Assembly (NCBI GenBank): GCA_965227515.1
Contig: CBDDFZ010000001.1
Location: 2,496,001 to 2,560,000 of the forward strand
DNA from: Alphaproteobacteria bacterium
GTDB taxonomy: Bacteria > Pseudomonadota > Alphaproteobacteria > CALKHQ01
Reading direction: 5' to 3'
Length of the DNA: 64,000 nucleotides
This document shows positions 24,617 through 25,876 of the stretch, one piece after another. The translations under genes were made by a program, and so were the position numbers. Every line of letters starts with the position of its first letter. Position 1 is the stretch's first letter. A model generated the notes under the pieces. The model worked only from the letters and a program-made list of their open reading frames with translations. It ran no database searches and was not told where the DNA came from.

Positions 24617-24680
24617 CCAGCCCTCTCCCCCACCCGGCCACCCAGCAGGATACTTTCGTGGGTGGCCGGGTGGGGGAGAG
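24617..24680. repeat. CCCTCTCCC-type REP palindrome, target of the IS110 insertion
   Basis: ccagccctctcccccacccggccaccca...tgggtggccgggtgggggagag. The right arm continues as ggccgg at 25805-25810 after the IS. Confidence 0.88.
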
Positions 24681-24695
24681 CGACTGTCTTTTGTG

Positions 24696-25628
24696 TCAAG
24701 CGTTTTGCCATGGGGTCCGATCTCTGATGATGGCATTGAGGATGATGAGGAGCTTGCGCATGACGGCGACGAGCGCGAGCTTCTTTGGCTTTCCGGCATG
24801 GAGCAGGCGTTGATAGAAGGCCTTGAGGATCGGGTTCCGTTGGCTGGCGACCAAGGCTGCCATGTAGAGGGTTGTGCGCAGATGACGCCGTCCCCCACGG
24901 ATGGTGCGCTTGCCGCGCATGGTACCGCTGTCCCTGTTGAACGGCGCCAGGCCGACGAGGGCAGCGATCTTCTTTCGGTCGAGACGTCCGAGTTCGGGTA
25001 GGTCGGCGATCAGCGCACGGGCGGTGATATCGCCGACACCAGGCACGCTCTTGAGCAGGTCTTCGTCCTCGCGCCAAGCTGGTGTGCCGCGGATCGTCTC
25101 ATCGAGCTCGCGTTCGAGGGCGGAGAGTTCTTTCTGCAGGGCCGCCAGCAGGCGGTCGACGCTCTTGACCATGCGTCGGCTGGTGAGCTGGCTGCGGCGA
25201 TTGCGCTCGGCGGTCATCATGACGACGATCTGGCGCCGGCGGGCGATCAGCTCGCTGAGCACCTGGGTCTGGGCGTCGGCCAGCGGCCGAGGTTCGGGCC
25301 GGACCCGCTCGGCAAACAGCGCGATCGCCTTGGCATCTAGCGCATCGGTCTTGGCAAGCAGGCCAAGGGCACGCGCGAAGTCCCGGATCTGGCGCGGGTT
25401 GACCACGGCCAGCGGCAGTCCGGCAGTGGCCAGCGCCGCTGCCACCGTGACCTCGTAGCCGCCAGTCGCCTCCAGCACGATCAGGCCCGGCGACAGCCCG
25501 GCCAGGTCCTCGACAAGACTTGCCAGAGCATCGCCGTCTCGTGCGACAGCAAAGCTCTGGCCGGACGGCAAGACATGCACGTCGAGCCGCGCCTTCGAGA
25601 CATCAATGCCAACGAAAACCTGTTCCAT
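24696..25628 (-). CDS. IS110 DEDD recombinase/transposase
   Basis: [52 protein letters not shown]. Confidence 0.97.
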
Positions 25629-25790
25629 CACCCGTCCTTGCAAATGCGGTCTCGCACGGCGGACCAAGCGACTGTTCGGGTTCATTGGAACAACGGGCAG
25701 GGTGCCAAGCTCTCCCACGGTCTTCGAGACCAAGGGCCTTGCGGCCTCCCACCCGTCTCCGCCACCGCTACAATAACCGCAGCGGCCACA
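25629..25790 (-). ncRNA. Predicted bridge RNA of the IS110 element (ends approximate)
   Basis: Non-coding left end contains segments matching the target (GGCCCT; GGGAGAG) and the donor junction (ACAGTCGCT; TGCAAG) in IS621 order. Confidence 0.85.
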
Positions 25791-25876
25791 AAATGAGATA
25801 CAAGGGCCGGTGAAGATCGACTGAAGAGCGTCCTAGGGTGGCGCAAACGAGAGGTAGGGCAGGGCTCGTCTGTTTT

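Follow-up and report, generated by a model that had tools for sequence, protein, structure and literature searches.

A predicted bridge-RNA-guided IS110-group element aimed at a REP repeat in an alphaproteobacterial genome

How does a small insertion sequence (IS) come to lie in the same host repeat at each of its positions in a genome, and can the way in which it reads that repeat be recovered from its own sequence? The question is raised by a 64,000-nucleotide (nt) stretch of the genome of an Alphaproteobacteria bacterium (GenBank assembly GCA_965227515.1, contig CBDDFZ010000001.1, positions 2,496,001 to 2,560,000), which we call the window and in whose coordinates positions are given below. 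An IS110-group IS occupies window positions 24679-25804 on the minus strand, as do all of its features discussed here. A preliminary description, made from the letters of the DNA, had proposed that this IS encodes an intact recombinase together with a fully decodable bridge RNA programmed against a repetitive extragenic palindromic (REP) sequence of the host. Having followed up that proposal by comparative analysis, we hold with roughly 90% confidence that the element is indeed a member of IS110 guided by a bridge RNA to the REP of its host.

The extent of the element was confirmed by comparing its copies. Four full copies are present in the genome, 99-100% identical to one another and sharing the same ends, with intact open reading frames (ORFs) and identical guides. 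Counting the copy of the CT core dinucleotide at each end (25803-25804 and 24679-24680), the element is 1126 bp long, and it is laid out as a 176-nt non-coding left end (25804-25629), a single ORF and a 17-nt right end, with CT at both ends. Read on the minus strand, the left junction is ...ACCGGCC-CT-TGTATC... and the right junction ...ACAGTCG-CT-CTCCCCC..., where ACCGGCC (25805-25811), identified from the flanks of the four copies, is the left target half (LT) contributed by host REP sequence, and ACAGTCG (24681-24687), by our reading of the sequence, is the left donor half (LD) contributed by the element's right end. The CT core is found at both junctions of all four copies, and 62 of 74 orthologous records also have a right end that ends in CT. 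The left non-coding end is far longer than the right, and the predicted RNA lies upstream of the gene, which is the arrangement described for the IS110 group; in the IS1111 group the RNA lies downstream (PMC11208160).

The recombinase gene (24696-25628, ATG start) encodes 310 amino acids and, as the preliminary description held, appears intact. Its product contains an N-terminal RuvC-like domain (PF01548, DEDD_Tnp_IS110, E = 3.3e-22) and a C-terminal Tnp domain (PF02371, Transposase_20, E = 4.7e-22), and it passes the NCBIfam equivalog NF033542, "IS110 family RNA-guided transposase", with 229.6 bits against a cut-off of 140. Its relatives of solved structure are ISCro4 (PDB 9t56, E = 1.3e-39) and IS621 (E = 6e-37), and the catalytic residues are kept: D9, E53, D95 and D98, plus S234-G235, align with D11, E60, D102, D105 and S241-G242 of IS621, as the latter are described in PMC11208158. 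We took the ATG at 25628 as the start since it is at residues 3-4 of the resulting protein that similarity to IS621 and ISCro4 sets in, and since the ATGGAA directly following the donor loop is kept in orthologues; an upstream TTG start, which would give a 345-aa ORF, was rejected on the same two grounds.

All four copies interrupt the same REP site, xCC[G/A]GCC-CT|CTCCCCC, in the same arm of a hairpin. Their left flanks are ACCGGCC (two copies), TCCAGCC and CCCAGCC, followed in each case by CT, the element, CT again and CTCCCCCACCCGGCCACCC. The right flank is the left arm of the REP hairpin, the other arm being GGGTGGCCGGGTGGGGGAGAGGGCTGG; in the window, the rest of the hairpin (24617-24678) comprises the arm CTCCCCCACCCGGCCACCC (24660-24678), which holds the right target half (RT), CTCCC, then a 16-nt loop and the opposite arm (24617-24643). 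With the element removed, the REP arm would read CC[G/A]GCC-CT-CTCCCCC.... For an independent view of the empty target we turned to relatives, but the comparison failed: ours was the only genome of its genus among the 31 considered, and the flanks were not syntenic in the three genomes of the same family. The empty REP sites within the genome itself were used in their place. The uninterrupted site, [AG]GCCCTCTCCC, occurs 181 times, against about 23 expected from base composition, and the genome contains 272 REP arms at up to two mismatches and 54 hairpins with perfect arms. This abundance of the uninterrupted form shows that the empty target had been inferred correctly and that it belongs to a REP-type repeat of the host. 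The expectation that further copies would share one site was likewise borne out.

By sequence the four copies form two subtypes, separated by differences at 11 positions; the members of one pair are fully identical and those of the other differ at three positions, implying transposition after the subtypes split. The sole difference between the subtypes within the left end is a U-to-C change at position 54, which turns a G.U pair into a G-C pair. Two relics, remnants of additional insertions, also lie in the genome. The first (L005, G000:C1:3870892-3870943) is a solo 52-bp left end, 100% identical to the present one, which abuts a CCCCGGCC-CT REP stub and is joined straight to REP tail sequence. 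The second (L006, G000:C1:1500199-1500289) is a 91-bp left-end fragment of 82% identity with CATGGCCCT in the left target guide region beside the flank ACTGGCC-CT.

The guides themselves lie within the left end. According to the published rule for IS621-type systems (PMC11208160), the left target guide (LTG) and left donor guide (LDG) have top-strand sense and pair with the bottom strand, the right target guide (RTG) and right donor guide (RDG) are antisense, and each includes the core. The guide order, strand rule and CT core of this element all match that rule, as the preliminary description had stated. Located by script, its four guide strings lie exactly where it had placed them: AAGGCCCT at 25733-25740, GGGAGAG at 25710-25716, ACAGTCGCT at 25667-25675 (recurring at the right end, 24679-24687) and TGCAAG at 25637-25642. 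As RNA features, the RTG (GGGAGAG, 25710-25716) is the reverse complement of CT plus CTCCC at 7/7 positions, the LDG (ACAGUCGCU, 25667-25675) is identical to the right end plus core at 9/9, and the RDG (UGCAAG, 25637-25642) pairs with the CT plus TGTA of the left end at 6/7 positions, with one G.T wobble. "Fully decodable" is too strong a description because of the fourth guide: the last six bases of the LTG (CAAGGCCCU, 25733-25741) match LT4-7 plus the CT core, giving 6/9, and both this value and the 7/7 of the RTG hold at all four copies. The three 5' bases of the LTG (CAA) find no counterpart at any of the 181 empty sites, and the genome nowhere contains AGGCCCTCTCCC. The bases adjoining the two right-hand guides look like handshake guides, a concept introduced in PMC11208158: in the target loop (CU, 25708-25709) the C pairs with donor base LD7 (G), and in the donor loop (GA, 25635-25636) the G pairs with target base LT7 (C) at all four copies.

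Does this left end (25629-25802; 176 nt with the core) look like a structured RNA? Taken alone, its predicted fold has a minimum free energy of -76.8 kcal/mol (z = -2.07), and 2 of 200 shuffled sequences fold as well. Such single-sequence energy is weak evidence, whereas the comparative evidence is strong. The left ends of nine close relatives align at 78% mean column identity, and the two target guides are exactly the variable columns of this alignment, the rest being conserved. The consensus fold consists of a 5' stem-loop (25761-25787 in the window's copy; IS621 is also described as having one, PMC11208158) and two internal loops, each with a basal stem and a distal stem-loop; LTG and RTG face each other across the first of these loops and LDG and RDG across the second. 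In the target-binding loop, the 5' strand of the basal stem (25742-25757) pairs with its 3' strand (25693-25707), both placed by the consensus fold and covariation (helix 2; 7/7 pairs with compensatory change, 97.8% of alignment cells paired), and the distal stem-loop (GGUCUCGAAGACC, 25719-25731) forms helix 5 (87.8% paired). In the donor-binding loop, the 5' strand of the basal stem (ACCCG, 25677-25681) pairs with 25630-25634 (helix 7; 92.3% paired, 3/5 compensatory), and the distal stem-loop (25647-25666) forms helix 8 (92.3% paired, 6/8 pairs compensatory).

To extend the comparison we used relatives from a scan of species-representative genomes (79 loci, 42-77% identity) and a covariance model, R1, built from the two-loop part of the left end. 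R1 scores the window's left end at 139.2 bits and within this genome matches only the four IS copies; overall it gave 93 matches over 87 sources, mostly directly upstream of the gene, with some weak antisense matches. Among 39 orthologous RNAs, 25 of the 33 stem pairs show compensatory change, and 88.4% of stem cells are paired, compared with 72.3% after shuffling (0/500 shuffles reach the observed value) and 33-44% when the pairing partners are slid, figures to be read knowing that the alignment was fitted to R1 and so is biased towards the structure, a bias that the slid controls share only partly. The guides thus sit, as the preliminary description would require, in internal loops between covarying stems.

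The most direct evidence that the RNA specifies the site comes from asking whether guides and flanks change together across orthologues. For the RTG, each guide was taken from the R1 alignment, the element's right end was located via the LDG, and the next five bases were compared with those predicted by the RTG. Of the 93 rows in the alignment, 2 with gaps and 17 on the minus strand were set aside; among the 74 that remained, 62 have the CT-ending right end, and merging duplicates leaves 37 distinct guide sets, in which 23 different RTGs occur. On average, 4.70 of the 5 bases agree (30 sets are perfect and 35 score at least 4), whereas permuted pairings average 1.87 +/- 0.20 with a maximum of 2.73, and none of 10,000 reaches the observed value. 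For the LTG, left ends were placed at the conserved CTTGT start, with the controls given equal register freedom, and 32 guide sets agree with their left flanks at 6.06 of 9 positions on average, against 4.61 +/- 0.17 when permuted (again 0/10,000). The 6/9 pairing of the present LTG is typical of its clade. By position, LT4 to LT7 agree in 72-91% of sets, LT3 is marginal (56% vs 39%) and LT1-2 are at chance; thus the clade reads about four bases to the left of the core and five to its right, and the unmatched "AA" of the LTG and the C before it are not a guide in this clade. Lastly, the base after the RTG pairs with LD7 in 40/40 guide sets (36 C-G, 3 U-A and 1 U-G), which fits the handshake guide.

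Based on these observations, and by analogy with IS621, we propose the following course of events. On excision, the two ends would join at the CT core, bringing the TTGACA -35 box in the right end (24694-24699) to a position 17 nt upstream of a candidate -10 hexamer, TATCTC (25795-25800), and the left end would then be transcribed into a bridge RNA of about 160-176 nt. The TTGACA stands at a fixed distance in orthologues, where 32 of the 40 guide sets have TTGAC equally far from the end of the element; together with TATCTC, a weak match, it would fit the promoter rebuilt on the excised circle that is described for IS110 elements (PMC11208160). Fold and covariation show the architecture of this RNA, in which two internal loops follow a 5' stem-loop. 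Of the donor-loop guides, ACAGUCGCU matches the right end plus core while UGCAAG pairs with the core and left end; in the target loop, as sequence and covariation show, GGCCCU reads CT and the four bases immediately to its left, and GGGAGAG the CT plus the five bases to its right, so that the specified site is [G/A]GCC-CT-CTCCC in one arm of the abundant host REP hairpin. After strand exchange, one base following each right-hand guide would pair with the partner DNA, the handshake shown by the covariation. By homology, catalysis would fall to the 310-residue recombinase, with its RuvC-like DEDD domain and Ser-Gly-bearing Tnp domain, exchanging strands via a 5'-phosphoserine intermediate as solved for IS621.

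Two features of the element's expression signals deserve mention in their own right. The stop codon of the recombinase, TGA, lies inside the TTGACA box of the predicted circle-junction promoter (24694-24699). At the other end of the gene, AAGGA (25635-25639), which belongs to the RDG and handshake sequence, stands 8 nt before the ATG and is thus probably also the ribosome-binding site, in which case folding of the donor loop could limit translation.

A number of points weigh against reading this locus as an RNA-guided element directed to REP. Only GGCCCU of the LTG pairs, with a G.T wobble at the two copies that have a CCAGCC flank, and IS621 is described as tolerating mismatches poorly (PMC11208160). 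The left end had also been expected to fold and to score against bridge-RNA covariance models: the fold with two internal loops was obtained, but an Rfam scan of 24300-26300 at E up to 10 gave 20 matches, none at gathering score, none to a sense-strand family and none to a family named as a bridge RNA. The candidate -10 hexamer is weak, and a consensus scan of the integrated copy detected no sigma-70-like promoter on either strand. Among sequencing runs recorded as RNA, none was found to contain this stretch. The 12 of 74 records that lack a CT-ending right end were omitted from the RTG test, two guide sets within it score just 2/5, and, the orthologues being related, their guide sets are only partly independent of one another. 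In several orthologue lineages (for example L033, L064, L072 and L086) a changed LDG goes with a changed right end, an agreement that is partly circular given that right ends were located via the LDG. Finally, only four copies of the element, along with the two relics, stand against 181 matching empty sites in the genome, and its activity here may therefore be low.

The last of these points bears on the alternative that survives best, namely that the element, although descended from a bridge-RNA IS, can in effect no longer move in its host and belongs to a resident and decaying family, not an active system. The scarcity of copies beside so many matching sites would be expected if so, as would the solo 52-bp and diverged 91-bp left ends, the three unpaired 5' bases of the LTG, the absence of a promoter-like site from the consensus scan of the integrated copy, and the lack of any full copy in the 30 relatives searched, none of which belongs to the genus of the source genome. 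We nevertheless regard immobility as unlikely. None of the four ORFs is broken or lacks a catalytic residue; between copies there are just 0-11 differences in 1126 bases, and the grouping of the copies into two subtypes of two, one pair being identical, indicates transposition after the split; the guides are identical across copies and match the occupied sites; a short LTG is normal for the clade; and low excision has been reported for IS621 as well (PMC13626964). To judge from its sequence, then, the IS is an intact IS621-type bridge recombinase system and probably still mobile, with both its RNA and its recombination activity predicted by likeness to that system. That the protein itself recognises the REP hairpin, with the left end serving only as a 5' leader or promoter and the flank matches arising by coincidence or as a by-product of terminal repeats, seems to us highly improbable: all targets do lie in one hairpin-forming repeat, and the target stem-loop is described as contributing to the specificity of ISPpu10 (10.64898/2026.03.19.712850), but the right flank is predicted almost perfectly by the RNA over 23 distinct RTGs where permuted pairings never come close, LT4-LT7 covary with the LTG, the variable left-end columns are exactly the two target guides with the rest conserved, and any structural role of the hairpin would come on top of RNA guidance and not in its place.

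Several further arrangements turned up around elements of this kind. In one Alphaproteobacteria assembly, unrelated sequence takes the place of the first 50-110 nt of the left end in 4 of 13 orthologue copies (L020, L024, L025 and L029), being identical in L025 and L029, while the remaining RNA and the gene are kept; all four are without the 5' stem-loop, and L024 is without the LTG too. In some Dehalococcoidia loci, an inverted second bridge-RNA-like match lies just upstream of the orthologue (714-844 on the minus strand and 1051-1177 on the plus strand of L041; 941-1084 on the minus strand of L042 and L045), which suggests neighbouring or nested copies. In the present genome, a second and different IS110-family gene occurs in two places (L007, G000:C1:1349759-1352898, ORF 314-1630, and near G000:C1:1792751-1793084); its N-terminus contains ...LYIGVDVSKGWLDIV..., its 3' gene end and right end are 70-79% similar to those of the present IS, and the region upstream of it gave no match to R1. 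Directly to the left of the present IS, at window positions 25877-26129, is a repeat of about 240 bp with a long hairpin, which has at least five further copies in the genome at 81-83% identity and whose only Rfam matches are spurious ones of the microRNA hairpin type.

One Rfam model that does resemble the left end lies on the antisense strand. This is sX15 (RF02234), which matches window positions 25622-25762 on the plus strand with 31.4 bits, below its gathering score of 55, and it is the only model with such a resemblance. sX15 is a Northern-verified RNA of about 150 nt from the Xanthomonas plasmid pXCV183, and on that plasmid R1 finds a match on the opposite strand to it (L105 1597-1725, minus strand, equivalent to NC_007507 116396-116524; E = 7.4e-06) that is followed by an IS110-like N-terminus (MNGIGIDVCKAKL...). 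It would seem, then, that the Rfam sX15 family represents an IS110 left end, bridge-RNA-like in sequence, in reverse complement. Another RNA, asX7, has been reported on the bridge-RNA strand, and none of the papers found on sX15 in Xanthomonas concerns IS110 or bridge RNA, to judge by title and the opening of the abstract. Whether the bridge RNAs of this clade as a group are opposed by a cis-antisense small RNA, covering the whole RNA and the start of the recombinase, is a separate matter, and we consider it a long shot; a promoter scan found no antisense promoter in the window's copy. Were it true, such an RNA would constitute a layer of control not described for IS110 elements.

By sequence, the element appears new in the collections that we searched. 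A megablast search of plasmids gave no match to it. The closest IS-named plasmid relative is the ISMno7 family of Methylobacterium nodulans (as annotated on a RefSeq plasmid), whose 58% identity over residues 4-308 is too low for the same IS; the best plasmid relative of any kind reaches 62% (Sinorhizobium fredii), and genome contigs of uncultured Alphaproteobacteria reach 75-77%. The target specificity, which had been put forward as new, is unremarkable, natural IS110 elements differing widely in their guides. REP targeting by IS110 elements has been described, as have a bridge RNA predicted in 85.7% of the IS110-group elements in ISfinder and orthologues with a longer RTG (PMC11208160). With bridge RNAs, REP targeting and guide diversity already published, the locus opens no new question. 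For annotation, the element accounts for the interruption of four REPs and for both relics. It also provides a natural bridge recombinase, cleanly annotated and of GC-rich alphaproteobacterial origin, compact at 310 amino acids with a predicted RNA of 176 nt. The orthologue set, in which 23 natural RTG variants stand beside their matching targets, is in effect a modest reprogramming series made by nature, and could help in choosing orthologues for genome editing.

How, then, does it compare with the systems already known? ISCro4 (PDB 9t56) is the best match of solved structure, over residues 3-307, and this likeness is one of protein sequence. ISPpu10 and ISPpu9 of Pseudomonas putida can be set beside the present IS from their descriptions, as IS110-family elements that insert in REP and have many identical genomic targets. 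In ISPpu10, the target stem-loop is reported to be an added determinant of specificity and consists of a short 5' extension that pairs with LT (10.64898/2026.03.19.712850), whereas the present IS has its whole target within a single arm of a larger hairpin, about 62 nt long, the other arm being to its right.

The closest parallel is with IS621 of E. coli (PDB 8wt6 and related entries), as far as the published accounts of that element that we drew on describe it. The two share the same two-domain recombinase, with DEDD and Ser-Gly residues aligned; an RNA whose two internal loops follow a 5' stem-loop and which lies in a left end measuring about 176-177 nt; the LTG-RTG-LDG-RDG order, the strand rule, the CT core and the handshake bases; and a REP target along with a promoter rebuilt across the joined ends, the latter predicted for the present IS. 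They are distant relatives all the same (phmmer E = 6e-37; 326 amino acids in IS621 versus 310 here). A blastn search at the "distant" setting among 518 E. coli genomes gave a single 318-bp match of 65% identity, to an IS110 pseudogene, and none to an element named IS621. The present IS is also unlike IS621 in its right end of only 17 nt, its -35 box placed over the stop codon, and its different target sequence and host. The two also divide the target differently: IS621 has an LTG of 9 nt and a natural RTG of 4 nt, whereas the present guides read about 6 nt (core and LT4-7) and 7 nt (core and RT1-5), respectively, and IS621 reads seven bases to the left of the core and two to its right, compared with about four and five in the present clade, such that the 11-bp stretch recognised is displaced rightwards by 3 bp. 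By every feature open to computation, the element belongs with the IS621-type bridge recombinase systems; as an instance of the RNA-guided recombination described in 2024, it is clear but ordinary.

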